DNA of 64,000 nt from Spirochaetales bacterium. Lineage in GTDB: Bacteria > Spirochaetota > Spirochaetia > Sphaerochaetales > Sphaerochaetaceae. A model generated the notes under the pieces. It did no database searches and was not told the DNA's origin. It saw only the letters and a list, made by a program, of their open reading frames with translations. Shown piece by piece: positions 1 through 42,431 of the stretch (its first letter is position 1; every line of letters begins with the position of its first letter). The DNA lies in contig JALEVV010000018.1 in assembly GCA_022788185.1 (NCBI GenBank), positions 3,625-67,624 of the forward strand. The letters run 5' to 3'. A program made the position numbers and the translations under genes.

Positions 1-2290
1 TTCTGTGAAGATATATCCTTCCTGTGGGGGCGGGGAAGGTAAATGATACCTTCAGCGATGCAGAAACTCCGTCATCCTTCAGGTCCTGAAGCAGATCTTT
101 TTCATACAGGGACGATAGCTCAAGATCATAACAGTGATTGCCTTTAGGGGTTACTCCTGCACCCAGGACTCTTAGTGCAGAACTCACAAAGGACTCGGTA
201 TCCTTGTCAGAACCGAGAATTTCCTTTTCCTCGTTGAGGATTTCCATTACCTCTCCTGAGTGTATTTTGCCCTGTGCAAAAATGGTTCTGTTTCGTTTTG
301 CCTTTTCATAGGCATCCTGCCACGGCTTTTCAAGATTCGCTTCAATATCTTCAGCTTCACCGAAATCAAAGTAAAGCTGACCGGTTTTATCAGACTTCTC
401 CTTAAGCAGTGTTGCCTGCATCAGGGCATTTCTGATCGCCTTACCATCTTCGGGCACTGGGACAAGTACTCCAAGACTGTTTCTGATGTCCTGAGCTTTT
501 CTCAATATAACTTTGAAGATAAGTCCGTCTATCGGGTTATCGGAACCATAGAGCATTATGCATTTCACATATTTTGCGCTCTGTCCGAATCTGTCTATTC
601 TTCCTTCCCTCTGTTCATGTCTTGTCGGGTTCCAGGCAAGGTCATAGTGAATTACTGCGGTAAACTGGTTCTGGAGGTTTATTCCTTCTGAGAGACAGTC
701 TGTTGCAACCAGGATCGGATGATCCTTTTCAAGCATGGCATTGACTCTTTCTTCCCTTTCCTCGCTGCTCAGTTCTCCCGTGATCACTTCGACATAACGT
801 GAAGGAAATACTTCTCTCAGTTTGTCACCGACATAGTTGGCGGTTGCAATGTATTTGCAGAAGATGATCGGAGTATATCCTGTCTCACTGTACTGATCTT
901 TTTTAAATATCTGTTTTTTAAGTACATCAACGAGAAGATTGAACTTGGGATCCTCAAGCTCTCTGAGAATGTGTGCCCTTTCCAGAAGATCCCTTACTTC
1001 ATTTTTCATGGAAGATGAGAGGGAAATGTCCAGATCCTGCGGTGCATCGGATAAAGTATTGTCAAACAGTGAAGAGTATTCATCTTCCAGTGAATCATCC
1101 TCATCCCCGCTGATGTTTCTGAGTCTGGTTTCAAGCGCCTTTATTGCCGAGGCTGGGGATGAAGCGATGCTTCTGTACAGTGCAAGAATTGCATACCAGA
1201 TTGCTGTATTATGTTCAGCAGTCCTGAACTTTTTGCTCAGTGATTCGCAGTATTCTCTGACATCATCGAAGAACTCTTTCCATTCATTATTGAATCTGTA
1301 CGTGAATTCATTTGTCAGCCTGTGTGCAAAGTTCGGATTGTCTGAAAATGCATCAAGATCCTTCCGCTGACGCTGGACCATGTGCTTTGCAAGCTCCTTC
1401 CTGAGTTCGCTGTCCTTTACGTCATCATCTGCCAAAGCACTGAATCTGGGATCGATAAGGGCAAGCAGGTTTGCAAATGCCACCTGATCACCGGAGTGGG
1501 GCGTGGCAGTAAGGAATATCATGTGCCTTGTCTTTTTTTCAGCAAGAGTCTGTAGCAGTTCATATCTCAGATGTGTCGGAGCGCCAGACTTTTCAGTACA
1601 TGAGTGGGCTTCATCAACTATTATCAGATTGGGAGCCGTATGGGCAAAGTTATCGCGTCTCTTCTGGTTTTTGATGTAATCAAGAGAGATTACCGTGACC
1701 GGGTAGTACTCTGTAAGACTCATTCCCGCGGGAACTTTCTTTTCGAGAGAATAAACGGAAGAAGCCGTAATTGCAGTTGCATCAAGATTGAAGTGATCCC
1801 TCAGCTCACTTACCCACTGTGAGACAAGATGGGAAGGGCAGAGAACTGAGAATCTTTCGATTTCATAGCGGGCCATCATCTCTTTAGCGATGAGACATGC
1901 TTCGATTGTTTTACCCACACCGACATCATCTGCAATGAGTATTCTTACCGTATCCATTGCAAGAGCCATGAGAAGGGGAGTGAGCTGGAAAGAACGTGGC
2001 TCAACAGCAATGCTTCCTATTGATCTTATAGGTCCGGTACCGCTTTTCAGCCTCAGGATTGAAGCTGTCCTGAACATGGCACTGTCTGAAAAAGCTCCAT
2101 GGTTCTGAGGATCAGGGAGTGTAAATACCGTTTCCCGGACAGGCTCTTTTTCCAGTGAAGGAATAAGATAGACGACATCATCATCACTTCCGGTAAGGGG
2201 CCTCAGACAAAGCATATCCTCCGTTGAGCCTGACTGTATGATCCAATCCCTTCCTCTTGCATTAATCAGAAAACCCGGTGTGCAGTTCAT
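1..2290 (-). CDS. SNF2/RapA-like superfamily-2 helicase, first 763 codons only (gene continues beyond the left window edge)
   Basis: Absent from the supplied ORF track because it is open at the window edge. Hand translation from ATG 2290 gives an uninterrupted frame down to position 2: MNCTPGFLINARGRDWIIQSG... Frame checked at positions 1933, 1618, 649 and 4. Motifs in that frame: ADDVGVGKT (Walker A), IIVDEAHS (motif II), FLTATPHSGD (motif III), VATDCLSEGINLQ (motif V), HYDLAWNPTRHEQREGRIDRFGQ (motif VI). An AGGAG lies 7 nt upstream of the ATG. The start is 12 nt after the stop of the upstream helicase. Confidence 0.85.
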   Translation of the reverse strand, partial: MNCTPGFLINARGRDWIIQSGSTEDMLCLRPLTGSDDDVVYLIPSLEKEPVRETVFTLPDPQNHGAFSDSAMFRTASILRLKSGTGPIRSIGSIAVEPRSFQLTPLLMALAMDTVRILIADDVGVGKTIEACLIAKEMMARYEIERFSVLCPSHLVSQWVSELRDHFNLDATAITASSVYSLEKKVPAGMSLTEYYPVTVISLDYIKNQKRRDNFAHTAPNLIIVDEAHSCTEKSGAPTHLRYELLQTLAEKKTRHMIFLTATPHSGDQVAFANLLALIDPRFSALADDDVKDSELRKELAKHMVQRQRKDLDAFSDNPNFAHRLTNEFTYRFNNEWKEFFDDVREYCESLSKKFRTAEHNTAIWYAILALYRSIASSPASAIKALETRLRNISGDEDDSLEDEYSSLFDNTLSDAPQDLDISLSSSMKNEVRDLLERAHILRELEDPKFNLLVDVLKKQIFKKDQYSETGYTPIIFCKYIATANYVGDKLREVFPSRYVEVITGELSSEEREERVNAMLEKDHPILVATDCLSEGINLQNQFTAVIHYDLAWNPTRHEQREGRIDRFGQSAKYVKCIMLYGSDNPIDGLIFKVILRKAQDIRNSLGVLVPVPEDGKAIRNALMQATLLKEKSDKTGQLYFDFGEAEDIEANLEKPWQDAYEKAKRNRTIFAQGKIHSGEVMEILNEEKEILGSDKDTESFVSSALRVLGAGVTPKGNHCYDLELSSLYEKDLLQDLKDDGVSASLKVSFTFPAPTGRIYLHR

Positions 2291-2302
2291 TATCTATCTC
2301 CT

Positions 2303-5300
2303 TTACTGACTCAGTACCATGATGATTATACCTTTTGATTCAAGGTATGTCCTGACCTCCAGAGCGGGCTCGTCCCTGAAGAATGCAGTCTTGGCTCTGT
2401 TGCTGTATAGGGGAATTGTATATTTCCCATTCATGATCACTTTATCCTTTATAAGATCAGCAATGGATTCCGGTGATGAATCTGAAGCAAATATCATGAG
2501 ATCGTCGTCGTAGCGGTATAATGACTCAGCCCCAGTATTCGGTTTCGTTATTAAGGCATTTGAGAAGGCAACCAGCAGCTGAATTGCGCCTTCATCATGC
2601 CTGTCAATATACTTATGGTCCGTCTGGTTATAGTATGAAAGCAGACAGCTGTAACAAGCTGATATGCAATCCTGTTTGTCATCCACAAGTTCATCCCTCT
2701 CAAATACATGTCCTTCAGGAACTGTATAGTGCATTATCTCAAGTGCTTTTCTGCATACAGCCCTGAATGCTTCGGGATCTTCCTGAAGTCTTGAGAGTAC
2801 ACCGGCTCCCCCTTCGCTTGCTTCATAGAACATGATCGTTTTCCTGTCGTCAGGATTCGGAAGACTTTCTATTGCCAGTTCAGATTCCTCAATCTGGAAG
2901 ACGGACTCAATACCTCTTGCAAGAGCAGCCTGAAGGGTTGGGATAGTTTTGTCTGTCATATTATCCCCTACGGGGTGAAGCAGGAGTATGTTTTTGCATT
3001 CAGATACAAACGGGACAACCGTTGTTATGGCCTTAGGCTTTGGAAGTTTTTCATCTCCTTCTTCTGTTTCGTCTTCATCAGGTATGGAAGGTGTTGCTTT
3101 TCCCCATATCCCTGTCACGGCATCAATCATGAAGCCTGGGGATGCATCCGTATCCTGGATTCCCTTCCAGCCTTTGTTAAGCTTGAAGATATCAGCCGAT
3201 GGTATGTAGGTTAGATGACCTATTACACTTTTACCATTATCATGGATATCGCTTTTCTGTGTTGGCTTTGTGTAGTCATATGAGAATGAAGTATCTATCA
3301 CATATCCCTTTTTGACTCTTTCCTCTTCCTGACTCGATATCCTGTTCTTTATCCTTGTTTCAATATTCTCGATGCGGAATATATGGGATACTCTGTCCGA
3401 GGCTTCAATTTTTTCACCGCAGTTAGGACAGACATCAAATGGAAGATTATCGCTGTTGTTCTCAGCTATTGTCGCATAGCCACACGATCGGCACTTAATA
3501 AGTGCAGACGTAGAAAGACTTGGTCTGCCTTTGTCATCAATTGTTGCCGATGAAGTGTTGAGCTTCACTTTGTATACCTCAAATGCATTGCCTTCGTGGT
3601 ATATCAGGTTAAGCGGGCCGAACTCCGACAAGGCCAGGAATCTGGCACGGGAAATGGACATTCCCTTTTTCACTGATTCTTCTTCATTCAAGGCTTTGGT
3701 ACTGAAAGCAGGAATCCAGGCCCTGATCGGGAGACGTGGGAAGTTATAACCGGGGAAGAGCCCCTGGCCTGCCAGATATCTGAATATGTAGAAGTCCGAC
3801 ATAGGGGAATTCATGGATATGTCTTTGCTGGTAAGCAGATTGAGCTGGTTAACTGACTGCGTGTATACATTAAGGAAATAGTCTCTTTCCTTTTTGCTCA
3901 GTCTGGCGCTGTTGGTTTTACTGTGGGCATCATACTTTGCGGCCTGTACGTCAGCAACAAGTTTCTTCCAGCTGTCAAATGAATCCTGGAACCGCAGGAA
4001 GGCACTGCCCATAAATTCTTCTTCATATCCGTCATGGTACCATGGAGTTTTTTCCTCAGTAAGGATGCCAGCTCTTTTCAGTGCTGATGAATAGTACTTC
4101 ATTTCACTGACTGCCCTGTCTTGCAGCATTGGATCATTCAGAGCCTGAATGATTTCATCCTGAAGATGATAACTTCCGTCTTCACCCTCATCCATGATTT
4201 CGATGATCGAAGAACCCATGTGATAGCCTGAAAGACTGAACCACACAGCCATCATATGACTGTTGAACAGCTCCTGGTTCGAAAGGTCTATCTGCGGTGC
4301 GGATACAGCTCCGCTTACCATGTCGTTTCTGTTATTGAAATACCACTGATCATGTGGGCTATTCGCGGTAGCATATGAGACAATGAGTGCTGCGCTTCCG
4401 CTTCGTCCGGCACGTCCTGATCTCTGAGCATAGTTTGCCGGAGTAGGGGGAATATTTCTTAGGTAAACGGTATTCAGGCTGGAGATATCAATACCAAGTT
4501 CCATTGTGGGGGAACAGAAGAGTACTGGCAGTTTCTTGAATCCATCTTCTCCCCTGAATCTTTTTTCAAGGTACTGACGGTCGCTGGAGGGGACCTGTGC
4601 GGTATGTTCTTTTGCTTCATAGCTCAGCAGGTCAAGTCTTTTTTCGATCAGGCTGTCAGATGCCTTTTCATATAAACCTGAGTAATAGTCGTTTGCCCAC
4701 CTTTCAAAGTCTGGCTTTCTGCTTCTGCGCAGTGAAAATCTGATGATATCTGCTTTTAACTGATAGAATGTTTCATCCGGCTTGTGTGGAACAGTATTAC
4801 TTACAGCCATACCGCAGTTAGTGGCAAAATCCAGGGCTTCAATTAGAATTTCCCTTATACACTGATTCTTTTCCCCCGGTCTCATGCGCTGGAATCTTTC
4901 TGCCTGAAATATGGTTAGTTTCTTTATTTCCCTACCGATCTTTGATGCGGTGGAGAGCGTGAGATATCTGAAATCGTATGTCTTTTCTTCCTTTATCTGC
5001 TTTGCGGACATGGTAGTTATCCTGTTTCCGAGCATAGGAGTGGTTTCCGATAACTGATATCTTTCATTGAAGAAATCCTCGCAGGTTTTTTTTATCCTGT
5101 TGAGATTGTCCTGCCTGATTATATTGGAATATATGCATGTGTTTGCTGTCAGAGTATCAAACAGCCTGTTCATCAGAATCCTGAACTCTTTTTCCGTGAA
5201 TCTGCTTAGAAGCTGATATTTCTGTCTCGACTCTTCCTTTATCATCTCTTCAAACCCTTCATATGAGATATCTATGAATCCAAGATGATAAAGAGATGGA

Positions 5301-7435
5301 TTGGCGTAATACCATTTCCTGTTGAGGTCCATCAGGAAGCGGTATGAAAAAAGATCCTTTGCCGCCATAAGAGGTTTTGATTTTGCATAACTGGAAAGGT
5401 TTGGATTCTGAAACAGTTCTGTCTGAGCTTCATCATTCCGTATATCGGAAAAACCTATTATATCGAAAATGGAATCTGTCAGATCATCAGTACTTAGCGG
5501 TATGTCGGAATTCTTCAGTGCAGATAAGGCTGCAGAGCGGATTATTATCTTGCTCATGAAGTCATTGAAATGCCCAGCCTGCAATGCCGCATCCTGTCTG
5601 TTGTCAACAAATCCCAGTACTTTCCTGTCTTTTTCACTGCTGTCGGAAAACATCTGGTTAAGGATGTTTATGACTATCATAGTTGAGGAACTGCTACGCC
5701 CCTCTCCGGACAGACCGCTCAGTTTTGTTCTTTCGCTTGTAGTTGCTTCATGTTCTGAAAGGCACCCGGGGCAGAATTTGAACTTGCCCTTTATGAAGTA
5801 GAACTCTTCTCCTGAACCTTCAGTACCGTCAAGGTTTATACGTACTTTCTCCGGAAGCTTGTCCTGCTTCTTTATTGTGTAGTCCAGTTCATCACCTTCA
5901 ACGAATGATTCAGGGAGCCCTTCAAACTCTTCTGGGTTGTATCTGAGATCTCTGAGAGGAACCAGATATCCTGACTCTGTATCAGACTCTTTGGACATGA
6001 ATTCCATGAGTTCCCGCGGTTCAAATCCGCTGTCGGTGCGGTTGACCGGAATGATTTCCTGTCCGCAGTCGCGGCAGAAATAGGTTTTGAATAACCTTAT
6101 TGTTTTTTCGGGGTTTGCATAAAGCTGTTCATCAACAGTCACAACTCTGCTGCCCTCAGGACCGAGCGAAAGCATCAGACTTCCCGGACCGCTTATGAAC
6201 TGGTGAAGCTTGAAGGCAAAAAGGGGCTGGTTCACACTGTTCATGACACCTGAAGCATGAAGCAGGTAGTCGTTAATGTATTGCTCTGCTTTTAAAGAAT
6301 CCATTCCTGAATCCTTGCTGAAAGAAGAGTATATTTTATCCAGGGATTTAGGTGTCGCCCTGACATATTCCCCTGAGTCATCTTTGTTCATGCTCAGCTC
6401 GCTTTCTATCCATACTGACATTGGATCGCGGCAGAGTTCTGAATAATCAGAAGAGAAGGGGATGCCACTGTTGACGCGTTCACGCAGCCTTGTTTTCAGA
6501 TTTGAGTCAAACGAACTGTCTGTTACTCTTGAGAGGACTTCGCCGATAATGTCGTCTGATGAGAATTCAGTATCAAATATCTCAGAAGCTATTCTCGCAA
6601 CAGCTTTTTTCCTGTCTTCGGCAGTACCGATACTTGTCATTGTAGCTGACGTGCCGATACAGATCGCATTTTCGGCTTTCAGCCTTCTCTTGAGCCTGCG
6701 CATGAGCATTGCAACATCAGCGCCCTGCCTTCCCCTGTAGGTATGCAGCTCGTCCATGACTATGAAGCGTACATCTTCAGCATTATCCAGGAGTTTTTGC
6801 TCATGCGGATCATTCCTTGTCAGTATGAGTTCGAGCATCATGTAGTTCGTAATGAGGATGTCCGGCGGGGTTGATGATATCCTGCGTTTTTCAGAAAGGT
6901 CTTCCTGTCCCGTATATCTTTCAACGGTTATCCCCGCCTCTGGATAATTGCTCAGAAATTTATTGATCTCTTCAAACTGGCTGTTTGCCAGGGCGTTCAT
7001 CGGGTAAAGGATGATTGCGGTTGTCCTGCATTCAGTTGTTCTGTTTTTGAGAATGTAATCAACTATGGGTATGAAGAAAGACAGACTCTTTCCTGAACCA
7101 GTACCTGTTGTCAGTATGTAGCTCTTTCCCGCAAGTGCTTTCTGTATGGCGTTTTCCTGATGATTGAACAGTCGTAGGGACTGCCCGTTCCATGGATTTA
7201 GGAAGATCTTCGCACAGTCAGAATGAAGAATGCCGTTTTGAGAAAGTTTTTCCACAGTCTGTCCCGTTTTGTAGTGGGGATTGATCTGTAGGAGTGGATC
7301 AGGCCAGTACTTCTTTTTATAGAATTCCGCGTTAATGTAATCATGTATGTCTTTGGCCTTTGGGTCCACAAAGCTTTTAGAGAAATCAGTAAACTCTTTT
7401 ATGAGATTGTTTCTTACATCAAATACGTTCTTCAT
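2303..7435 (-). CDS. Giant DExH-box SF2 helicase fused to a C-terminal DUF1998/MZB zinc-binding domain (DrmA+DrmB-like or DruE-like)
   Basis: ORF track 2303..7453 (1716 aa). Numbering on that protein: GTGSGKS 117-123, DELH 234-237, SAT 269-271, FVDNRQDAALQ about 615-625, MELGIDIS about 984-991, QRSGRAGR 1010-1017. DUF1998-type features: PGYNFPR 1234-1240, CRSC 1321-1324 with CPNC 1342-1345, FYEASEGGAGV 1542-1552, CISACYSC 1596-1603. The likely true start is ATG 7435 (MKNVFDV...), which has GAGGG 7 nt upstream. ATG 7453 has no RBS. Confidence 0.9.
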   Translation of the reverse strand: MKNVFDVRNNLIKEFTDFSKSFVDPKAKDIHDYINAEFYKKKYWPDPLLQINPHYKTGQTVEKLSQNGILHSDCAKIFLNPWNGQSLRLFNHQENAIQKALAGKSYILTTGTGSGKSLSFFIPIVDYILKNRTTECRTTAIILYPMNALANSQFEEINKFLSNYPEAGITVERYTGQEDLSEKRRISSTPPDILITNYMMLELILTRNDPHEQKLLDNAEDVRFIVMDELHTYRGRQGADVAMLMRRLKRRLKAENAICIGTSATMTSIGTAEDRKKAVARIASEIFDTEFSSDDIIGEVLSRVTDSSFDSNLKTRLRERVNSGIPFSSDYSELCRDPMSVWIESELSMNKDDSGEYVRATPKSLDKIYSSFSKDSGMDSLKAEQYINDYLLHASGVMNSVNQPLFAFKLHQFISGPGSLMLSLGPEGSRVVTVDEQLYANPEKTIRLFKTYFCRDCGQEIIPVNRTDSGFEPRELMEFMSKESDTESGYLVPLRDLRYNPEEFEGLPESFVEGDELDYTIKKQDKLPEKVRINLDGTEGSGEEFYFIKGKFKFCPGCLSEHEATTSERTKLSGLSGEGRSSSSTMIVINILNQMFSDSSEKDRKVLGFVDNRQDAALQAGHFNDFMSKIIIRSAALSALKNSDIPLSTDDLTDSIFDIIGFSDIRNDEAQTELFQNPNLSSYAKSKPLMAAKDLFSYRFLMDLNRKWYYANPSLYHLGFIDISYEGFEEMIKEESRQKYQLLSRFTEKEFRILMNRLFDTLTANTCIYSNIIRQDNLNRIKKTCEDFFNERYQLSETTPMLGNRITTMSAKQIKEEKTYDFRYLTLSTASKIGREIKKLTIFQAERFQRMRPGEKNQCIREILIEALDFATNCGMAVSNTVPHKPDETFYQLKADIIRFSLRRSRKPDFERWANDYYSGLYEKASDSLIEKRLDLLSYEAKEHTAQVPSSDRQYLEKRFRGEDGFKKLPVLFCSPTMELGIDISSLNTVYLRNIPPTPANYAQRSGRAGRSGSAALIVSYATANSPHDQWYFNNRNDMVSGAVSAPQIDLSNQELFNSHMMAVWFSLSGYHMGSSIIEIMDEGEDGSYHLQDEIIQALNDPMLQDRAVSEMKYYSSALKRAGILTEEKTPWYHDGYEEEFMGSAFLRFQDSFDSWKKLVADVQAAKYDAHSKTNSARLSKKERDYFLNVYTQSVNQLNLLTSKDISMNSPMSDFYIFRYLAGQGLFPGYNFPRLPIRAWIPAFSTKALNEEESVKKGMSISRARFLALSEFGPLNLIYHEGNAFEVYKVKLNTSSATIDDKGRPSLSTSALIKCRSCGYATIAENNSDNLPFDVCPNCGEKIEASDRVSHIFRIENIETRIKNRISSQEEERVKKGYVIDTSFSYDYTKPTQKSDIHDNGKSVIGHLTYIPSADIFKLNKGWKGIQDTDASPGFMIDAVTGIWGKATPSIPDEDETEEGDEKLPKPKAITTVVPFVSECKNILLLHPVGDNMTDKTIPTLQAALARGIESVFQIEESELAIESLPNPDDRKTIMFYEASEGGAGVLSRLQEDPEAFRAVCRKALEIMHYTVPEGHVFERDELVDDKQDCISACYSCLLSYYNQTDHKYIDRHDEGAIQLLVAFSNALITKPNTGAESLYRYDDDLMIFASDSSPESIADLIKDKVIMNGKYTIPLYSNRAKTAFFRDEPALEVRTYLESKGIIIMVLSQ

Positions 7436-7471
7436 ACAGTATCCCTCTCCCATGCTGAATCAGATTTTAAA

Positions 7472-7480
7472 ATTATAACA
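7472..7480 (-). promoter_or_regulatory. Possible extended -10 promoter element (TGTTATAAT) for the helicase/SNF2 pair
   Basis: The minus strand reads TGTTATAAT, 37 nt upstream of ATG 7435. It follows a weak hairpin (about 7573..7598) located after the 256-aa gene. I found no convincing -35 box. Confidence 0.35.
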
Positions 7481-7610
7481 TTCATTGAATTCGGAATAAA
7501 CCTTTTGTAACATGGTTGAAACTGAAGATTCAGGTTTTTGTTTTCCGGTAAATCTATATGTAATTCTGATGAAAGAGGGACATATTACAGCCCCTCTTCG
7601 ATATAATGTT

Positions 7611-8381
7611 TCAGTCTTCATCGTAACACAGTACTTCAACACCGTCTGATTCATCAGAGGAGAACCTCTTCAGGGTTTTTGCAGTCTTAAGTTTTATGTA
7701 AGCCGCTTCAGTTACCATTTCGTAATAAATCGGACACATTTCATTGGCAGTTGCGCAGTGTATGCTTTCGCCGTACTTTTTTACGGCATTTGCCTCTGCC
7801 TCTTCTTTTGTCATCCCGACAGAAAGAACATTTGTGTGTACCATAGGAGGACAGACAGTGACTGAGTAGCATACCCATCCGTAGGGCTTACTGTTGTCGT
7901 GCTTTGCCAGAAATGCTTCCTTTGATGAGAGTTTCTTTTGAAGGAAAACTACAGGCTCGTTACCTGAAAACTCAACAACAACGACGTTTGAGCTTTTCCT
8001 CTTTGTTTCCGTACCTGTTTCTGGATCTCTGGTGTAAATATATGACTGAGTGATTTTTGTAACCTCTCCGCCATTGACGAATCCGCGGCATGAAGTTCCC
8101 AGTACTACTTTTCCTTTGAATACAACTTTATCTCCGAGGCTCACAGGCTGTCCAACTGCATCTGTGGCAGCATTCTTCGGTGCCTTTCTGTCTTCAATCT
8201 TTACGATCTTGTTAAAGCGGCCCTCCATTGCCAAAGTGGAAGTGCTGCTATTCTCAAAACATGCCCTTCTGTTTTCGATGGATCTAATCCTGTCTTTGAT
8301 GATGTTAATGTCGTATCCCTCAATACAGATGAATCCTACGCAATCGCCGACGCTAATTTCCAAACCTCTGAAGTCTTTCAT
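7611..8381 (-). CDS. Hypothetical protein, 256 aa: two SH3/KOW-like N-terminal repeats and a Cys-containing C-terminal half
   Basis: ORF track. Strong RBS (TAGGAGGAGAAGAA before the ATG). Internal repeat LEISVGDCVGF... / PVSLGDKVVFKG... I recognise no family. Confidence 0.8.
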   Translation of the reverse strand: MKDFRGLEISVGDCVGFICIEGYDINIIKDRIRSIENRRACFENSSTSTLAMEGRFNKIVKIEDRKAPKNAATDAVGQPVSLGDKVVFKGKVVLGTSCRGFVNGGEVTKITQSYIYTRDPETGTETKRKSSNVVVVEFSGNEPVVFLQKKLSSKEAFLAKHDNSKPYGWVCYSVTVCPPMVHTNVLSVGMTKEEAEANAVKKYGESIHCATANEMCPIYYEMVTEAAYIKLKTAKTLKRFSSDESDGVEVLCYDED

Positions 8382-8478
8382 TTCTTCTCCTCCTAACCAG
8401 AATTGGTTTCTTCTCGTTGTTTACACCCTCATGTTAGTCGGTTCAGTCTGATTATTTCATAGCCATAATCTTATATTT

Positions 8479-10284
8479 TCATTTCTTCAGTGACTGGTAT
8501 TCCGGAGTGTGAAGAACTTCTCTGAGATTCATGAATATATTTCGGTAAAAACACTCTTCCAGTTCCTCCTCTGATTCCACGTCAACGATGGCATCAATCT
8601 TTCCGTCAGGGATGAAAGATGTTTTACTGATTATGTAGTTCATGTCATCGTCTTCCCATTCAAACAGTACGGCATAAAGAGTTTCTCCCTTATTATCAGT
8701 ATTGGTTCTGACCATTGTGGCCTGAAGCCCAATGCCGGAAAACTCTCCGTTGTTACATGCAAAGCCCTGAACCCCGGTGATACCAAAAGTCTCTTCTTCC
8801 CGGGAATCAATTGGATCAGAACCCAAAAGCATTGAGGTCATATTATCAGATAAAGATCCCGTGTTTTCTATTTCCTGGGGCAGTACAAGCTGCATAAGCA
8901 TGATATGTGCCGTCAATAGTTCATTGTATCTCTCAGATATCCTGGCTGTCTCCAGAGAGGAATACTCTTCAATGATCCTTTCTTGCTGGTGCTGAAGGAT
9001 ACTGCTTCGGGTTATTAGTAATCTTTCCTTCCCATCAGGCATGGCTATAGCTATTGCATAGAAGAAGTTTCCTTCAGCTTCTGTGATCTTGACCTCGGAG
9101 ACAATGTCGCTCCCGTTTTTTCCTGCGTAGCCATCCATGGATCTTCCCTGATCGATTTTATCATTCAGTTTCTGCAGTGCCCGGCCCTGTTCAACAAGGT
9201 CACTGTCCTTTGCTGTTACCGCCCTGATTTCTTTTGGAAGATAGTATGCGGTTTTCCTGATTTCAACTTTCTCTATCTGCATATTGCCGTCATGATCAAG
9301 AGTTTCGGTTTCCCTGAATGAGAATTTGGGATCAACATGGAATCCTACATGCTCGGCAATTGAAGCGTTAAGATTCAGTTGTCCGAGATCCGCGATGGAG
9401 TAGGAGGGCAGACCTCCGAATTCACCGCTTAACTCAAAGCCCGATGTAGGCTCCATGTTAAGCCACATGATACATCCTTCATGATTGGTTTTCGCATAGT
9501 CTGTCATCATGCGGAAGATGCCGTTGCGTCTGCAGTCCTCCCTTACATAGGCAGACTCGATATAAAGGATATGCCTGTCCTCGCCGCTAGCCCTCAAAGC
9601 ATCCATCCTTTCAAACATTTTTTCGCAGAACAGGTCTTTAGCTGGACCATCAGCTGAGAAAGACCAAAGTGCCCAGTACGGATTCAGTGTTCTCCACACA
9701 TCAAAGACATCAATCACACTTGACGGAATCATGGTTTGCAGCACATCAAGTGAGGGCCTATGGACATGATTCATGAGTCCGGTAACGGAAAATACCATAC
9801 ATCCAATGCATTCCGTGCCTATGAAGACATAAAGATGAACCTTGGGCAGGACCGCTTGCAGCTCATTCTGCTTATGCTGGTGCTGGAATTCGGTAATGCC
9901 GTACAGCATATAAGGTCCGCACTCCCAGATATCGGCAGGGAGTTCTTCCTCGGTCCTGAAACCTGTTAAACGCTTCAGAATTTCCTGATGGCCTTTAAGC
10001 ATGTGTTTTTTTGATTTTGCAAGATGCATTTTATTACCATGATACTTGAGCATGTTCATGTCCTCTCTGCCGAAAATAAGTGTTTCAAGAGGAATGTTGA
10101 GGTATCCGGCTATGAGGTCCAGCTTCTGAAGATCTCCGATTCCGCTTCCTGGCTTAGCCTTTTCCAGGTTGCTTATATCAGCCTGGTACATGTTAAGGTT
10201 TTCAGCCATCTGCTCCTGTGAAATCTTAAGAAAATATTTGCGCTGTTCCTTTATCCTTCTTCCGATAATGTCGAGATCAATCAT
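8479..10284 (-). CDS. XRE-family HTH protein (601 aa) with a central GNAT-like fold and a duplicated C-terminal module
   Basis: N-terminus IGRRIKEQRKYFLKISQEQMAENLNMYQADISNLEKAK... is a typical HTH_3/XRE motif. ILYIESAYVREDCRRNGIFRMM resembles GNAT motif A. Two similar C-terminal segments: NFFYAIAIAMPDGKERLLITRSS and ETLYAVLFEWEDDDMNYIISKTS. GGAGG RBS at 10291..10295. Confidence 0.85.
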   Translation of the reverse strand: MIDLDIIGRRIKEQRKYFLKISQEQMAENLNMYQADISNLEKAKPGSGIGDLQKLDLIAGYLNIPLETLIFGREDMNMLKYHGNKMHLAKSKKHMLKGHQEILKRLTGFRTEEELPADIWECGPYMLYGITEFQHQHKQNELQAVLPKVHLYVFIGTECIGCMVFSVTGLMNHVHRPSLDVLQTMIPSSVIDVFDVWRTLNPYWALWSFSADGPAKDLFCEKMFERMDALRASGEDRHILYIESAYVREDCRRNGIFRMMTDYAKTNHEGCIMWLNMEPTSGFELSGEFGGLPSYSIADLGQLNLNASIAEHVGFHVDPKFSFRETETLDHDGNMQIEKVEIRKTAYYLPKEIRAVTAKDSDLVEQGRALQKLNDKIDQGRSMDGYAGKNGSDIVSEVKITEAEGNFFYAIAIAMPDGKERLLITRSSILQHQQERIIEEYSSLETARISERYNELLTAHIMLMQLVLPQEIENTGSLSDNMTSMLLGSDPIDSREEETFGITGVQGFACNNGEFSGIGLQATMVRTNTDNKGETLYAVLFEWEDDDMNYIISKTSFIPDGKIDAIVDVESEEELEECFYRNIFMNLREVLHTPEYQSLKK

Positions 10285-10299
10285 TCCATGCCTCCATCG

Positions 10300-10324
10300 T
10301 AATAAATCCCATCAGGATTTATTA
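10300..10324. promoter_or_regulatory. Perfect 10-bp inverted repeat TAATAAATCC-N5-GGATTTATTA, a candidate operator of the XRE protein
   Basis: Read directly from the sequence. It lies 5 nt upstream of the RBS of the 601-aa HTH gene. Its right arm overlaps a minus-strand TATAAT (10321..10326). Confidence 0.5.
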
Positions 10325-10351
10325 TAGCTCATTTCCCATATATTCCATATC

Positions 10352-13132
10352 TTGGCTGGCTGTAAGTCTTGCTTATACCCCACATTCATTATGTGTTATA
10401 GTGGGCTTATGGATTGGCGGAAATACTGCATAATAGATACTTCGGATTACAGGGATATAACGGAAGATGTCGTCAGTATATTCAGGGACAAAGCCATATC
10501 CAGATATCGAATAACGTTCGCAAAAGGGCCTAAAGAGTTTTCATATGGTTTTGGAAGAATAATCTTCTCTTCAGAGCCGACACCGCTGGAATTAAGTAAT
10601 AAGCTTGTTTTCATAAAAGGTAAATTTCAGCCGCAGATCAAAGAACTGATCCGTTTCAATGAGTGGTGCAAGGTCCTATTTAACGATGATAGGAAGAGAA
10701 CTGTCCGTTTCTCAGAAATACAGTTCATCTCAGACAGGCGCGGAGAAAAGAAAATATCTGATATCATGGATTATCTGGTTGAAGTGGCAGCTGCAGATGA
10801 GAGCGTATTCAATCAGGTTGAGGATTCTCCCGGATTCCTTGTTTCCCAGCTCAGGGGCCTGATGATACGGGAGGATTCTGTCTTATCGCTGATTTTGGAT
10901 AAAGAGGAGCTGTCTGTAAGGAGAAAAGATACTCCGGTCATTGCTCCTTTTTCATCAAACTCAGCTCAGCTTAAAGCAATAAGGAATGCATTGTCTTCAA
11001 GGATATCAGTAATTCAGGGACCTCCGGGAACAGGAAAAACACAGACAATCCTGAATATCATCTCCAACCTTCTTGCTGAAGGGAAAACCATTGCGGTTGT
11101 TTCCGGCAATAATGAAGCAACCAGGAATGTATATGAGAAGCTGGAGAAAGAAAATCTCGGGTCTCTGTGTGCTTCTTTAGGTAATAAGGCAAATATTGAG
11201 AAGTTTTTCTCTGATCAGCCGACAAAGGATTATTTCAGGAATTGCAAAGTTTCAAAGGATAAAAATGTATTGACAACATCTGTCAGTCATCTGAGTTCTA
11301 ATGTAATTGGTATTTACGATTCTGTCAGACGCAAGGCAGAGCTCAGGGCAATGATCCATGACCTTCGTATCGAGAAAGCGGAAAATGAGTCCAGGTATTC
11401 GGATCAACATTGTACGATTCCAGTGCAATTGCTCAGGGAAATATCTTCTGTAGATTATCTAAGGAATGCAGCCTATATTGAGACGCTGTATTCGTCTGTG
11501 AAAGGCCGACTCCGCAGAAAGCTGAAGATGTATTTCCATTTCGGTTTCTGGCCTCGGAAAGAATTCTCCCCCACAGTTGCCATTGACTACCTCCAGAGTC
11601 AGTACTACTCATCACGGATATCGGAGCTCCATTCCGAGATACTGAATCTTGAACTGAAATATCCTGAGTCAAAGAACAGCAATATCCTGAAAGAGTTCTC
11701 TGAAAAGTCAAGGGAGTATCTTCTCTCAGTACTTATTTCGAGGTATTCCGAGATTGAGGATAAAGAGTTCTATTTGGAAACCTATCGCTTTGATAATGCT
11801 TTCCTGCGATATTACCCCATTGTGCTCAGCACCACTCATTCGCTTCAGTACTGTGCCCCGAGAGGTATTCTATTTGATTACGTGATAATCGACGAGTCAA
11901 GCCAGGTTAACCTTACAAGCGCATTCCTGGCACTGGCATATGCGAGAAATGCGGTGATTGTCGGAGACTCAAAACAGCTATCGCATATTGTTCCCGGCAA
12001 GCTAAAGGAACCACTTGACAGTATCAGAAATAAGTATGACATACCCAAGTACATCGATTACAGAAAATACAGTATTCTTGATTGTGTCCTTCAGGCTTTT
12101 AAGGATTCAGTACCTTCCGTTCTTCTTAATGAACACTATCGCTGTGATCCTGAAATCATAGGTTTCTGTAATAAAAGATTTTATGACGGTAAGTTGGTAA
12201 TACAGACAAAGCATGATGTGAACGGTGGAATCAGGATCATTGAGACTCCTTCTCATACTGCATTCGGAAGGACAAATCCAAGACAGGCTGAGATCATTAC
12301 TTCAGAAATACTGACATCAGATCTTGGTGATGTCGGTATTGTTGCCCCATACAGGGACCAGGTATCACTGATCAGGAATATCCTTCAGCGTAATGATATC
12401 CTTGTTGATACCGTTCATAAGTTCCAGGGTAAGGAACGGTCCGTAATGATCCTTTCAACCACTGCTGACAGGACGGTTCTGTATGAAGATCCCGAGCACA
12501 TTGATTTTCTCAATAATCCGAACCTGATAAATGTTGCTGTTTCCAGAGCAAAGAAAGAGCTGATTGTCATTTCGTCTTCTGAAGCATTGAGTCAGGAAGG
12601 AACACTGCTGTGTGATCTTGCCAGATATGTAAGCTACTATTCGGGAAATGCATCAAGGTCCAGAACCAATACGATTTCAGTCTTTGATCTGATGTATGAT
12701 GAATATTCCCCGATTCTTGAACGTATGAGAAGAAGTATGCTGAAGATTTCTCAGTTTGCAAGTGAAAACATAGTTGCAACACTGATTGATGAAATCTGCA
12801 GATCCGGCGAGTATGGAGTGCTGGCATTCAAATTCAACTATCCTCTGAGGAAGATTATCGATCCTGATAGTGTGTCCGGAAGGGAGGATAGGAACTTCAT
12901 TCTTTCCCTTGGTACCCATTGTGATTTTGTTATCTTCAGTCTTCTGGATAAGAAAACTCAGCTCCTGGTGGAAGTTGATGGGAAACAGCATGAATCGAAG
13001 ATACAGAAGAAGAGGGATGCCATTAAGGACCGTCTCGCCAAAGGTGCCGGAATTACTCTGGTCAGAATAAAGACGACTGACGTCAATGTGAGGGAGACCT
13101 TATGCAATGCACTCAGGAACAGCATGAAATGA
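10352..13132 (+). CDS. SF1 (Upf1/DNA2-like, AAA_11/AAA_12) helicase with C-terminal Vsr/DUF559/DUF2726-like nuclease-fold domain
   Basis: Helicase motifs: VIQGPPGTGKTQ, YVIIDESSQV, VIVGDSKQLSHI, LNEHYRCDPEI, VHKFQGKERSVMI, INVAVSRAKKELIVI. C-terminus CDFVIFSLLDKKTQLLVEVDGKQHESKIQKKRDAIKDRLAKGAGITLVRIK matches the DUF559/Vsr-type pattern. The start is uncertain: the track gives TTG 10352, and ATG 10409 (MDWRKY...) is more likely. Confidence 0.88.
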   Translation: MAGCKSCLYPTFIMCYSGLMDWRKYCIIDTSDYRDITEDVVSIFRDKAISRYRITFAKGPKEFSYGFGRIIFSSEPTPLELSNKLVFIKGKFQPQIKELIRFNEWCKVLFNDDRKRTVRFSEIQFISDRRGEKKISDIMDYLVEVAAADESVFNQVEDSPGFLVSQLRGLMIREDSVLSLILDKEELSVRRKDTPVIAPFSSNSAQLKAIRNALSSRISVIQGPPGTGKTQTILNIISNLLAEGKTIAVVSGNNEATRNVYEKLEKENLGSLCASLGNKANIEKFFSDQPTKDYFRNCKVSKDKNVLTTSVSHLSSNVIGIYDSVRRKAELRAMIHDLRIEKAENESRYSDQHCTIPVQLLREISSVDYLRNAAYIETLYSSVKGRLRRKLKMYFHFGFWPRKEFSPTVAIDYLQSQYYSSRISELHSEILNLELKYPESKNSNILKEFSEKSREYLLSVLISRYSEIEDKEFYLETYRFDNAFLRYYPIVLSTTHSLQYCAPRGILFDYVIIDESSQVNLTSAFLALAYARNAVIVGDSKQLSHIVPGKLKEPLDSIRNKYDIPKYIDYRKYSILDCVLQAFKDSVPSVLLNEHYRCDPEIIGFCNKRFYDGKLVIQTKHDVNGGIRIIETPSHTAFGRTNPRQAEIITSEILTSDLGDVGIVAPYRDQVSLIRNILQRNDILVDTVHKFQGKERSVMILSTTADRTVLYEDPEHIDFLNNPNLINVAVSRAKKELIVISSSEALSQEGTLLCDLARYVSYYSGNASRSRTNTISVFDLMYDEYSPILERMRRSMLKISQFASENIVATLIDEICRSGEYGVLAFKFNYPLRKIIDPDSVSGREDRNFILSLGTHCDFVIFSLLDKKTQLLVEVDGKQHESKIQKKRDAIKDRLAKGAGITLVRIKTTDVNVRETLCNALRNSMK

Positions 13133-13145
13133 TTAATGTTACTGG

Positions 13146-15956
13146 TTATTTCCTGGATTTGGCTTTTGAGTAAATATCCTCTAATCTTGTACCGCAGTTA
13201 TGATCCCAGTCAGCTGAACACTGGAGTTTTCCGAATCTGTTTACTCTGAGTTTTGCTCCGCATTCATTACATGCAATTCCATTGTTCAGAAGATACTCCT
13301 CCACCAGCTGATATGGGACATAAGGAGAAAGGCATTTGCCGCATTTGGAACATGCTATGATGTACTTCCCACCGGAAGTTTTCTTAACGGTTGAACCTGC
13401 GCGGCATTCGCTGCAACTGAACTGTCTGGAGATGTAATCAGAGAAGTCTGAGGTTGTCGCGGATTTATTGTATCTGTATGTATTCCACTCCCTGCGGGCT
13501 TTATCATGGCCGCATAAGGATTCAAATACATACGTCGTATTCCTGCCTCTCAGAACAAAAGGTATCATTCTGCCATTATATCTATTAGTCACTTCCGGAA
13601 GTCCGAACCAGACAAATGTATTTTCACCAACCAGATAATCATTGGTTGGGTTGAATGAAGGAAAAACAATTCTGAAGAGCTTATCTGCATTAGGTGTGGC
13701 ACCGCTGCATAATGTTATGCTGCTCCACCGTTTTATGTTTTTTGCCTTTTTAAGAATTTCCGTGAACTCTGCGAATGTGAAGGTAGCATGGGCTAACAAT
13801 CTGTTGTTTTTGGAATGCCAGTATGTAAGTTTTTTATCATCAGTGCCGCACATAACATCGGAACCCAGCACTTCAGCGGCTTCCTTTACTGCTTTGAAAC
13901 AACTTGCTGTGTTCACGATATTATTTTTTGTGATGAAGTCAATCAGATAATCCTTTTCAAAGTGATTGCATGACTTTGCAAGATTTAGTAGCTTCAGCAT
14001 CTCAGGTGAGATTGAATCGCGATGGAGCATGAGATAGCTGTAATCAGAAATAACGATGAATTTGCCCCTGGTCCTGGTAATGGCAACGTTTACAAGGCGT
14101 GTAGCATCATCTATTGTTTCTCCGTCAGTGAAGATTATGCCTGTTTCCCGTTTGGGGGCCGATTCAACCGTGTCGAAAATGATGACGTCTTTTTCAAAGC
14201 CCTGGAACTGATGAACTGTAGAACAGAGTATATCAGGCTTGTCTCCTCTGATTCTTTCTGATGCATCCTTAAGCATCGCAGACAGCAGTTTTGCCTGCGC
14301 CTGATATGGCGTGATTATCCCTACCGACAAACCTTTTGTCTGAATGACGCACAGGGCAAGTTTCATTGCAATTACTGCTGAAAGCGGGTTGAATCTGGAT
14401 CCGGTTGATGTAGTATGGCAAAGTGTCTGAAGTTCAGAGTAATCGACAAGGGTAAGTTCTTTACCTGGAAATGGCTGAGCATTTGTGGCTTTCGATACCT
14501 TGGCCCTCATCCCAGGAGCAGAGACCAGCATCCCGTTATAAAGGCTTTCACTGATGTAAGAGGCAATATTTGGATGCATCCTGCGTTGCTCATTGAGCAT
14601 CGTCATCCATGGATGGTTCCTGACATTCCCAAAAGGATCATTTGCATGGAGGTATGTAAAAACATCATTTCTCAGGATTGATTTCGGACTGAACTGAGCA
14701 ATTGGGGCAAGCTGTCTGAAATCACCGAGAAGAACAAGTTTTTTAGCCATGGTTGCTGCTACCATCACCTGAGGTACATAAGCCATTGATACCTCGTCAA
14801 AGAAGATGATGTCCCAACTGATACTTCTGATTTTATCCATCAGAGTGGCTTTTGTTGCCGTTGTTGCGATGATATTTGCTTTGGATATAAATTCTTCTTC
14901 TCTTTTTACGAGAATTGAATGGCATATGGCACGTATAAACTGGGCAGTTTTTTTATACCATTTGTTCTCTTCACCGCAATTCTCGGTTATTGTTTTCATT
15001 TCTCTTAGCTGGTTCTTCTTTTCGGTTGGAACAGCTTTTATGGAGCATAAAATATTTATCGATGATACAATTAATTCCTTTATCTCTCCATCCGTTATAT
15101 TAACATTAAGTTCTGTTTTGAAAATGTTATCGGTCTTTTGAAGAACAGCCTTTATCTCCGGACATTGATTAGCTGCATAAAGGCGGGCACAGAAGTTTTC
15201 ATTTGAATAGAGGTTGGGTTCCCGTGCCATTCCATAACGAAAAACTTTCCCGATTATCCGCTCAAGATATCCTTTCTCTTTTGCGATATCGATTATTTTC
15301 AAAACCGCACCATCTACGGAAATATTGCTCTGAGAGATTATTAGAACCTTTTTCCCAGCGAGCATCTGTTCCAATGCCAGATTTGCAAGAGTGTATGTTT
15401 TTCCCGTCCCGGGAGGTCCCCATATCATGGTGATACTGCCATTCCTTACTTTCTCAGCTGCATCGGCAAATCCTCTGTCTGGCTGTCCATCCCGCTCCAG
15501 ATGTATCTGTGCAGCACCGACAAGCAACCGAAGCAGTTTATTGTTTAAGTCAAGACTCTCCACCTGCCTCGCAAGATTCTCTGTTAATTTGGATGTGTCG
15601 ACAATCATTGAAAGTGAATCGATAGGTTTGCTGTAGTTCTGAACGCAGACTTCTATGTATTCATGGGAACAGTAGCTGATGAACCCTTTGTAAGTAACGG
15701 AGTCTATCGTGAAAACGGCACAGGTTTCAGGTGCAAAGTTCAGGAATTGATGATTTGGGAAATGATAATATCCATCAAGTTGCTCAGAATAAATGAAGTA
15801 CCCATCAGAAAGGGCATAGCTTTTCCGTTTTGAACTGGAGCGTATGAACGTTACTTCAGAAAACAGCTCATCACGAAATTTTAGGAGTTCTTTTTTTACT
15901 GTTTGGGGTGATACCTGTATTGTTTCTTCCTGGTTGCCTTTTCCCTGAGTTATCAT
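13146..15956 (-). CDS. SF1 (Upf1/DNA2-like) helicase with an unknown N-terminal domain and two C-terminal zinc ribbons
   Basis: ORF track 13146..16058. Likely start is ATG 15956 (MITQGKG...), preceded by GAGGG. Helicase motifs: MIWGPPGTGKTY, IIFFDEVSMA, LLGDFRQLAPI, NEQRRMHPNIA, VHQFQGFEKDVIIFD, VNVAITRTRGKFIVI. C-terminus has CSECRAGS...CSKCGKC and CNECGAK...C...C, resembling topoisomerase-type C4 fingers. Confidence 0.88.
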   Translation of the reverse strand: MITQGKGNQEETIQVSPQTVKKELLKFRDELFSEVTFIRSSSKRKSYALSDGYFIYSEQLDGYYHFPNHQFLNFAPETCAVFTIDSVTYKGFISYCSHEYIEVCVQNYSKPIDSLSMIVDTSKLTENLARQVESLDLNNKLLRLLVGAAQIHLERDGQPDRGFADAAEKVRNGSITMIWGPPGTGKTYTLANLALEQMLAGKKVLIISQSNISVDGAVLKIIDIAKEKGYLERIIGKVFRYGMAREPNLYSNENFCARLYAANQCPEIKAVLQKTDNIFKTELNVNITDGEIKELIVSSINILCSIKAVPTEKKNQLREMKTITENCGEENKWYKKTAQFIRAICHSILVKREEEFISKANIIATTATKATLMDKIRSISWDIIFFDEVSMAYVPQVMVAATMAKKLVLLGDFRQLAPIAQFSPKSILRNDVFTYLHANDPFGNVRNHPWMTMLNEQRRMHPNIASYISESLYNGMLVSAPGMRAKVSKATNAQPFPGKELTLVDYSELQTLCHTTSTGSRFNPLSAVIAMKLALCVIQTKGLSVGIITPYQAQAKLLSAMLKDASERIRGDKPDILCSTVHQFQGFEKDVIIFDTVESAPKRETGIIFTDGETIDDATRLVNVAITRTRGKFIVISDYSYLMLHRDSISPEMLKLLNLAKSCNHFEKDYLIDFITKNNIVNTASCFKAVKEAAEVLGSDVMCGTDDKKLTYWHSKNNRLLAHATFTFAEFTEILKKAKNIKRWSSITLCSGATPNADKLFRIVFPSFNPTNDYLVGENTFVWFGLPEVTNRYNGRMIPFVLRGRNTTYVFESLCGHDKARREWNTYRYNKSATTSDFSDYISRQFSCSECRAGSTVKKTSGGKYIIACSKCGKCLSPYVPYQLVEEYLLNNGIACNECGAKLRVNRFGKLQCSADWDHNCGTRLEDIYSKAKSRK

Positions 15957-16084
15957 TGGTTTCCCTCGGGAAAAGTTTACCTGAAAAGAAGGTATTTTTA
16001 AATAATCAATTTCATTTTTGTCGTGAGCATGATTAGTTAAAAAACAACAGGCGACCACCCCTGGCAGTCGCCTTTAGCTTTTAC

Positions 16085-16456
16085 CTATACCAGTGTGTAG
16101 CCATCCAGGACGGTATGCCTGCTGATTCTTTCCTGTTTGACCTCATCTGATATGGTTTTGCAGAAATAGGTGTGAGGAACACCGTTGATGGTTGTTCCTT
16201 CGGTGAACTCAGAGATCGCAAAGCTTTTACCGTCAATCAATGCTTCCTGATGGGATCCTGTTAATACCAGATCATATCCCGTTTCAGGATCATGGTAGCT
16301 GGCGCCTTTGAGGGTAAGGAGCTTTTCATCATCGTTGTAATTCTCCGGAGCATTATGAAATAACCACTGAATTCCCCGATGAATGGCTCTGATGATAGTG
16401 ACATCTTCCTCTGTGACCTCACGCTTTTTTTCTTTGTCAGTCAGTTCCACAGACAA
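16085..16456 (-). CDS. Hypothetical small acidic protein (about 121-123 aa), first gene of the unit with the zinc-ribbon helicase
   Basis: ORF track (TTG start at 16456). GTG at 16450 has a better AGGAG spacing. The gene ends 26-28 nt before the helicase ORF. I recognise no family. Confidence 0.65.
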   Translation of the reverse strand: MSVELTDKEKKREVTEEDVTIIRAIHRGIQWLFHNAPENYNDDEKLLTLKGASYHDPETGYDLVLTGSHQEALIDGKSFAISEFTEGTTINGVPHTYFCKTISDEVKQERISRHTVLDGYTLV

Positions 16457-16532
16457 TCTCCTGTTTTTGTATTACGCCGCGCAGGCGGCAGGACCCCTTC
16501 AGAAGGTGCTCCTTCATCGGGGTGTTCCTTTT

Positions 16533-16561
16533 ATTATCACGGCATGAACGGAAGCTGTCAA
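16533..16561 (-). promoter_or_regulatory. Near-consensus sigma-70 type promoter TTGACA-17 nt-GATAAT
   Basis: The minus strand reads TTGACA (16561..16556), a 17-nt spacer, then GATAAT (16538..16533). It lies about 80 nt upstream of the 123-aa ORF and directly after the araD stop. Confidence 0.55.
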
Positions 16562-16580
16562 ACTTTTTCCTGAAAAGTCT

Positions 16581-42429: not shown

Positions 42430-42431
42430 AA

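Follow-up and report, generated by a model that had tools for sequence, protein, structure and literature searches.

Positions 1-7435 of the window, the 64,000-nucleotide stretch of contig JALEVV010000018.1 from a gut spirochaete (Bullifex sp., Spirochaetota) that was analysed here, very probably hold the beginning of an ARMADA Type I anti-phage operon, its first two genes. The name ARMADA stands for 'disARM-related Antiviral Defense Array'; the system was defined by Bell et al. 2025 (bioRxiv, September 2025, PMC12458937), and its Type I has the gene order YprA homologue, helicase resembling BrxHII/RapA and methyltransferase resembling PglX (PMC12458937). The complete operon encodes a helicase of 1710 amino acids (aa), an SNF2 protein of 936 aa, a PglX/DrmMI-like methyltransferase of 1352 aa and, in this lineage, a translationally coupled HNH_2 endonuclease of 236 aa. 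It is identified as Type I because its composition and order match the definition of Bell et al., and because comparison with the loci of their Table S1, comparison with E. coli and a neighbor-joining (NJ) tree point the same way. The genes beyond the left edge of the window were read from L091, a public Logan contig that is 100% identical to window 1-17435 and reaches 7.7 kb further left. The principal features are as follows.

Window 1-2290, minus strand: ArmA-like, BrxHII/RapA-type SNF2 helicase gene, running off the left edge, with the N-terminal 763 of its 936 aa inside the window
Window 2303-7435, minus strand: YprA-family, ArmC-like helicase gene, 1710 aa from M7, in an open reading frame (ORF) reaching 7453
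Window 7436-7610, minus strand: intergenic gap of 175 nt from the 256-aa gene to the helicase gene
Window 7611-8381, minus strand: gene for a 256-aa protein, outside ARMADA
Window 8479-10284, minus strand: gene for a 601-aa protein, outside ARMADA
L091 15146-17956: full-length SNF2 gene, 936 aa
L091 22003-22713, about 4.6-5.3 kb past the window's left edge: gene for the HNH_2 endonuclease, 236 aa, overlapping the methyltransferase gene by 13 nt

The four co-oriented minus-strand genes of the original prediction, which had been read from the letters of the window and their translations, were all confirmed at these coordinates. The motifs that it had named in the large helicase (PGYNFPR, CRSC...CPNC, FYEASEGGAGV and CISACYSC) were all found, and the SNF2 ATG lies, just as described, 12 nt past the stop codon of the helicase, with AGGAG in the spacer. 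Pfam profiles assign DEAD, Helicase_C and MZB/DUF1998 domains to the large protein and SNF2-rel_dom and Helicase_C domains to the truncated one; the proposed fusion of helicase and DUF1998 parts is borne out by the presence of both in a single 1710-aa protein. The true start of the helicase is probably M7 (position 7435), because a public assembly records a product of 1710 aa and the helicase homologues invariably start at M7; the 1716-aa product of the longer ORF was not on record in the same exact look-up. With lengths of 1710 and 936 aa and E-values down to 1e-150, these ORFs lie far outside what chance would produce.

Composition, order and conservation of the operon

Past the left edge, L091 completes the SNF2 gene (936 aa) and continues with a methyltransferase gene, the HNH_2 gene, a 79-aa ORF, MatE and cytidylate kinase. 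The methylase that one of the two earlier readings had placed beyond this edge is seen there as a 1352-aa N6-adenine methyltransferase whose domains are N6_Mtase/Eco57I/MmeI and whose NPPW motif is at residue 773, its gene separated from the SNF2 gene by 0 nt. The helicase/SNF2, SNF2/methyltransferase and methyltransferase/HNH_2 junctions measure +12, 0 and -13 nt, respectively, and a 90%-identical relative, L001, has the same operon order as far as its contig reaches.

The order is conserved across phyla. A scan of one genome per species returned at least 599 helicase relatives in many phyla, the best 80 of which were surveyed, with full-length helicase homologues at 33-49% identity. A co-oriented SNF2 gene lies downstream of the helicase gene in all 71 survey loci with at least 1.5 kb of downstream sequence, and a co-oriented gene for a large methyltransferase then follows in all 59 with at least 5 kb. 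The flanking genes vary between loci, other defence or mobile genes (GAPS4, Septu and IS110) being among them. Among the survey loci are contigs that Table S1 lists as 'ARMADA Type I helicase': FNJR01000008.1 (L063), CABPSP010000013.1 (L015), DVLZ01000012.1 (L016) and JACSRU010000095.1 (L007). In an NJ tree, which is crude and was built without the published reference alignment, the 83 survey helicases (the window's included) form one group apart from ArmC-II of E. coli and DruE-III, and the window's helicase nests among the Table S1 loci. Helicase homologues as a whole number more than 8000, most of them full length at about 1750 aa.

The 1710-aa helicase has an intact Walker A motif (GTGSGKS) and DELH box, and its CxxC motifs (CRDC at 454, CPGC at 555, CRSC at 1315 and CPNC at 1336) have cysteines that are invariant in the family. 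The zinc modules of ARMADA Type I are a beta-barrel with at least two CxxC inserted at RecA2 and another module in the OB region, and BrxA-like and MarR-like domains are inserted after RecA1 and within RecA2 (PMC12458937). As far as position in the sequence indicates, the CxxC pairs at 454 and 555 and the single Cys4 at 1315/1336 fit these zinc modules. Pfam assigned nothing to residues 280-930. An AlphaFold2 (AF2) model of residues 1060-1710, with a mean predicted local distance difference test score (pLDDT) of 79.8, consists of long helices followed by an OB-CON-DUF1998 canopy, and its best structural matches in Foldseek are MrfA (6znp, E 1.4e-5, probability 1.00) and DrmB (7s9v_B).

The E. 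coli reference was the locus of ATCC 8739, with experimentally validated ARMADA II, Druantia III and Zorya II. The helicase matches ArmC of E. coli with 185 bits and DruE-III with 130 bits; the SNF2 protein, with intact GVGKT and DEAH motifs, is 25% identical to ArmA over 631 aa (146 bits); the methyltransferase matches ArmB with 115 bits; and no protein of the island in which the operon lies matches ArmD at E<1e-3. The gene after the helicase gene encodes this SNF2 protein and not a UvrD-like one. The best PADLOC name for the methyltransferase is DrmMI (197 bits), and its scores fall below every NCBIfam PglX cutoff. With published Type I operons the locus shares three components in the same order, the lack of ArmD and a single OB-region Cys4 module, and it differs from them in its host, a gut spirochaete (Bullifex). 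With Type II operons (E. coli NCTC 12900, ATCC 8739 and EDL933 OI-172) it shares homologous SNF2 (ArmA), methyltransferase (ArmB) and helicase (ArmC) proteins, and it retains the same Walker and NPPW motifs on which Type II depends. However, Type II has the reversed order ArmA-ArmB-ArmC-ArmD and adds a RelE-GajB helicase (PMC12458937); this ArmD is needed there and missing here, ArmC is a 2113-aa protein with extra Vsr and EEP domains, and local segments are no more than about 22-35% identical.

Two side observations concern the SNF2 and methyltransferase genes. The PADLOC model PDLC02853 ('DpdE') spans the SNF2 protein end to end with 504-524 bits in the window (1-2290), in L001 (11194-14004) and in L002 (15190-18003), and probably mislabels ARMADA SNF2 genes as Dpd. 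L002, L003 and L004 are three near-identical metagenome contigs; in L004 (18005-22320), compared with the other two, an IS110-family transposase cuts the methyltransferase to 1042 aa and the helicase and SNF2 genes are intact, so that methyltransferase loss may be tolerated.

Several considerations weigh against the assignment to ARMADA Type I. PADLOC 2.0 and NCBIfam 20.0 contain no ARMADA models, and the best names that they return are DruE, DpdE and DrmD, with matches that are sub-cutoff or fragmented. Membership in Type I is based on gene order, on homology to loci that a preprint tabulates and on the crude NJ tree. The literature describes experiments for ARMADA Type II alone, Type I being predicted only. 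The active Vsr nuclease predicted for Type I is not reproduced in the window's helicase, as described below. Finally, the methyltransferase and HNH_2 genes both lie outside the window and are inferred from the identical overlapping public contig. DefenseFinder already calls ARMADA, according to a study of EDL933. No new kind of system is revealed, but the locus is now correctly named, where PADLOC 2.0 and NCBIfam 20.0 would mislabel parts of it as DruE, DpdE and DrmD; and as an intact, compact locus of a gut spirochaete it is a candidate for testing the widespread, so far only predicted, ARMADA Type I.

The Vsr-like tail and the HNH_2 gene

The helicases of ARMADA Type I carry a C-terminal Vsr-type PD-(D/E)xK nuclease that is predicted to be active (PMC12458937). 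In the window's helicase, the last ~65 residues (1645-1707) are modelled as alpha-beta-beta-beta-alpha-beta, the core topology of a PD-(D/E)xK/Vsr-like domain, but this putative domain is shorter than its Type I counterpart and lacks the PDF...DGxxH residues. A canonical Vsr/DUF559-like signature (rPDF...vDGPxH...RD...G..viRF) is present in 40 of the 83 helicase tails compared. Degenerate tails correspond to one large branch of the NJ tree, which includes the window and two Table S1 loci, and from their residues the fused Vsr-like domain is probably inactive in the window's branch. The remaining tails, that of the window (TIPLYSNRAKTAFFRDEP) included, are without the signature residues PDF...DGxxH, and when PDB sequences were searched with a profile built from 24 C-terminal tails, only noise (BurrH repeats) and no Vsr came back. 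In the Foldseek search with the multidomain model, MrfA and DrmB dominate and mask the Vsr-like domain taken alone.

The HNH_2 gene is confined to loci with a degenerate tail. HNH_2 homologues are co-oriented downstream of the methyltransferase gene in 15 of 30 degenerate-tail loci versus none of 21 canonical-tail loci (Fisher p about 8e-5, a value that ignores phylogeny). In the NJ tree, the positive loci (L091, L002, L006, L025, L031-L037, L039, L049, L051 and L053) are scattered across the degenerate branch, in at least four of its sublineages. The extra coupled gene is a further difference from published Type I operons, no HNH partner being mentioned in the main text or Table S2 of Bell et al. 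(PMC12458937). One of these loci, L033, shows a defence system lodged within another operon: at 22010-23999, PtuA (308 bits) and PtuB (86 bits), a Septu pair, are inserted between the methyltransferase and HNH_2 genes.

HNH_2 may provide the nuclease in the degenerate-tail branch. A broader proposal, possible but held with less than even confidence, is that this branch is a sub-branch of ARMADA Type I in which the nuclease of the helicase is dead and cleavage has passed to HNH_2, making a four-gene 'ARMADA-HNH' variant that is absent from the defining paper, and that, separately, the pair of genes upstream of the operon may be a new defence-island module. The modest novelty of the locus is this HNH_2-bearing branch with its degenerate Vsr. 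The occurrence of HNH_2 only where Vsr is degenerate suggests an exchangeable nuclease module in helicase-centred systems and raises the question of which ARMADA protein cuts DNA.

How the operon would defend, recognize its target and use HNH_2 may be pictured by analogy with related systems. ARMADA Type II requires every one of its genes, as well as the Walker and NPPW motifs in them, and protection is direct and non-abortive (PMC12458937; EDL933 study). Druantia DruE acts on intermediates that contain single-stranded DNA (ssDNA), according to 2026 preprints. In the proposed pathway, the methyltransferase would mark host DNA or join in self/non-self discrimination; the YprA-like helicase would load on phage DNA, probably at ssDNA-containing ends or replication intermediates, and would translocate with the aid of the SNF2 motor, steps that are proposed because of the analogy to MrfA, DrmAB and Druantia DruE; and a nuclease would then destroy the invader without killing the host cell. 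The likeliest cutter here would be the separate HNH_2 protein, because the fused Vsr-like domain is without canonical catalytic residues.

Other affiliations and the upstream pair

PADLOC and gene content agree with the original prediction that canonical DISARM and canonical Druantia both fail to describe the locus. That prediction had offered a choice between a rearranged class 1 DISARM and a distinct, undescribed system of SNF2 and DruE-like proteins. The latter gives way to the fact that the trio and its order are already named as ARMADA Type I (PMC12458937). A class 1 DISARM (DrmD, DrmMI, DrmA, DrmB, DrmC) with DrmA and DrmB fused would account for the matches of the SNF2 protein to DrmD models (297 bits in PADLOC; 327 bits for the full-length protein with NF038317 of NCBIfam), for DrmMI as the best PADLOC name of the methyltransferase (197 bits) and for the structural match of the helicase canopy to DrmB (7s9v_B); the two systems each combine an SNF2 protein and a large N6-adenine methyltransferase with a YprA-family helicase that bears a DUF1998 canopy, and both are presumably DNA-targeting and non-abortive. 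This reading is nevertheless very improbable, as the DrmD score lies far under the curated cutoff of 610 bits, DrmA models reach at most 54 bits on the helicase (PADLOC) versus 320 bits for DruE, and no separate DrmA and DrmB are present. The suggested check for a PLD nuclease past the SNF2 gene found no PLD domain, and thus no DrmC, in any island gene. Moreover, separate genes for helicase and DUF1998 are what define the DISARM branch, class 1 of which usually has a PLD nuclease too, and the published phylogeny puts the fused architecture in the ARMADA/Druantia clade. A variant of Druantia (DruE-centred; type III consists of DruH and DruE) with a DruE-like effector and non-canonical partners is improbable to the same degree. 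The best PADLOC matches of the helicase are indeed DruE1, DruE3 and DruE2 (320-234 bits), Druantia helicases are a sister lineage to those of ARMADA, the two share a YprA-like helicase of the ARMADA/Druantia lineage, and a similar helicase-nuclease logic on ssDNA-containing intermediates is likely (2026 preprints). But these matches are broken into 2-5 pieces (5 for DruE1 at 320 bits), PADLOC finds no DruA-D, DruF/G/M or DruH among the nine island proteins or the downstream genes, the helicase is nearer to ArmC (185 bits) than to DruE-III of E. coli (130 bits) and has no PLD tail, and Druantia lacks the SNF2 and methyltransferase partners that are invariant and obligatory here. The chance is smaller still, and close to nil, that the genes belong to a Dpd (7-deazaguanine DNA modification/restriction) or BRIGADE-like cluster: the end-to-end 'DpdE' match of the SNF2 protein in PADLOC (PDLC02853, 524 bits) and weak DpdJ matches of the helicase are set against NCBIfam scores of 183 bits for DpdE (cutoff 500) and 91 bits for DpdJ (cutoff 800), no tgt/DpdA, DpdB/C or queuosine-precursor (preQ0) genes in the island, and reports of BRIGADE in haloarchaea only. 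Just as little probability attaches to a housekeeping DNA-repair pair of MrfA/YprA-like and RapA-like proteins. Structurally, the repair helicase MrfA is the best match, and the SNF2 protein has weak NCBIfam matches to RapA, but the genes lie in a low-GC island between unrelated housekeeping genes, are strictly linked to a methyltransferase of ~1350 aa, are patchily distributed over phyla with different flanks at every site, and are related to a Type II system that protects against phages experimentally. Membership in BREX was also considered, the SNF2 protein resembling BrxHI and BrxHII (PADLOC, 206 and 188 bits) and the methyltransferase being PglX-like, and was rejected with all other BREX components (BrxA, BrxB, BrxC, BrxL and PglZ) missing.

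ARMADA Type I remains the preferred identity of the operon, and a further alternative concerns its extent. That all four window genes are one new defence system, with the upstream pair as dedicated accessory or regulatory subunits, is improbable, though somewhat less so than the affiliations above. HTH (helix-turn-helix) regulators commonly precede defence operons, and an HTH gene is placed ahead here. The pair is co-oriented with the operon and is kept beside it, in the same order, in the 90%-identical L001, which speaks against full independence, and the pair and ARMADA may have a lineage-specific functional link. However, neither upstream gene is found in any of the 80 other survey loci, both occurring only in L001; the earlier suggestion of the two genes as accessories of the system is not upheld. 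The 601-aa protein has homologues elsewhere without ARMADA, next to type IIG or Eco57I restriction-modification genes (L086, L090), next to WYL, TIR and Mob (L094), next to Cas12a (L096) or among plain housekeeping genes (L088). A 175-nt hairpin gap separates the pair from the operon, versus 12, 0 and -13 nt between the ARMADA genes, and the upstream proteins of the window and L001 are 74-77% identical versus 90% for the helicase. It is concluded that the upstream pair is an independent module favouring variable/defence regions, because of its absence from the survey loci, the hairpin gap and the homologues of the 601-aa protein without ARMADA.

The gap (7436-7610) contains a 10-bp GC-rich hairpin directly after the stop codon of the 256-aa gene (-16.5 kcal/mol, z-score -3.3 in an RNA fold) and is probably, from its sequence, the boundary of two transcription units. 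No canonical T-tract terminator or promoter was called in these 175 nt, and a scan of 7300-10500 for promoters and terminators gave no more sites than shuffled controls.

The best guess for the upstream pair is a DNA-binding acyltransferase with small partner proteins. The 601-aa protein is modelled with an XRE/C-protein-like HTH at its N-terminus, a GNAT-like acyltransferase fold and C-terminal domains rich in beta structure. Its earlier description as GNAT-like has no support from hidden Markov models but holds at the level of fold: the AF2 model (pLDDT 81) matches GNAT acetyltransferases with probability 0.95-0.99 in Foldseek, and the HTH of the controller protein C.Esp1396I with 0.99. R252, G255, Y241 and Y246 are invariant, and the protein matches HTH_VI of PADLOC (E 3.6e-8) and the regulators phrog_8 and phrog_4. 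The family is rare, with 168 homologues in a word-index search and 45 clusters at E<=1e-30 in 1.84 billion representatives; phage and plasmid collections yielded no match. Small proteins of two recurring families follow the 601-aa homologues, and the 256-aa protein matches one of the two in its N-terminal 136 aa; phrog_2251 matches that family as well. The arrangement of a 601-aa homologue and a small beta-domain protein recurs in the gut-metagenome contigs L086, L090, L094 and L096.

The 256-aa protein is accordingly not the orphan that it had been called, since its N-terminal 136 aa match these small proteins and it also matches phrog_2251 (residues 73-137, E 1.5e-8). In its N-terminal ~136 aa are small beta-rich domains common to proteins of ~145 aa near 601-aa homologues, and BLASTP hits include L090_149 (E 1e-14) and L086_145 (E 2e-8). 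No Pfam, PADLOC or NCBIfam family was assigned to it; a precomputed weak match to DUF7205 was not reproduced by hmmscan even at E<=10, and no mention of DUF7205 was found in the literature.

Upstream of the pair, window 10300-10324 holds a perfect 10-bp inverted repeat (TAATAAATCC, 5 nt, GGATTTATTA), located 16-40 nt upstream of the start codon of the 601-aa gene. The repeat lies in the divergent region common to the 601-aa gene and the SF1-DUF2726 gene described below, and has no counterpart in L001. The HTH protein could use it as an operator.

The island and its other genes

The GC content is 0.42-0.45 in window 1-16000 versus about 0.52 across the rest of the window, and this low-GC region is therefore an acquired island. 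It extends over ~22.5 kb, with housekeeping genes at both ends, and holds, besides the operon, two SF1 helicase genes and the unrelated pair of HTH/GNAT-like and small proteins; by PADLOC, the neighbours of the operon are defence-like. The host was identified as a Bullifex sp. from clusters of housekeeping proteins. Only the same contig came back when the flanking aldolase was used to look for an island-free allele in Bullifex, and window 1-16100 had no megablast match in any of the complete E. coli genomes.

One of the SF1 helicase genes (window 10409-13132, plus strand, in an ORF from 10352) encodes a protein of 907 aa (926 aa for the ORF) with AAA_11/AAA_12 domains and a C-terminal DUF2726/DUF559-like nuclease domain. 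This SF1-DUF2726 protein resembles Mokosh MkoA/MkoC (173 bits), ProA and Hhe, all far under curated cutoffs. The gene looks like a separately inserted single-gene defence candidate, because it is missing from the otherwise syntenic L001. The other gene (window 13146-15956, minus strand, in an ORF to 16058) lies tail to tail with it, 13 nt apart, and encodes a Upf1-like SF1 helicase of 936 aa (970 aa for the ORF) that matches MkoA with 185 bits; no domain was assigned to its N-terminal ~200 and C-terminal ~290 aa. The Upf1-like helicase is 80% identical in L001, where its gene is directly upstream of a 602-aa gene.

Farther to the right, ARAGORN calls a tRNA-Ser(GCT) at window 43300-43378 (plus strand) inside a long ORF (42426-43913, plus strand); one of the two, the ORF or the tRNA call, may be an artefact.

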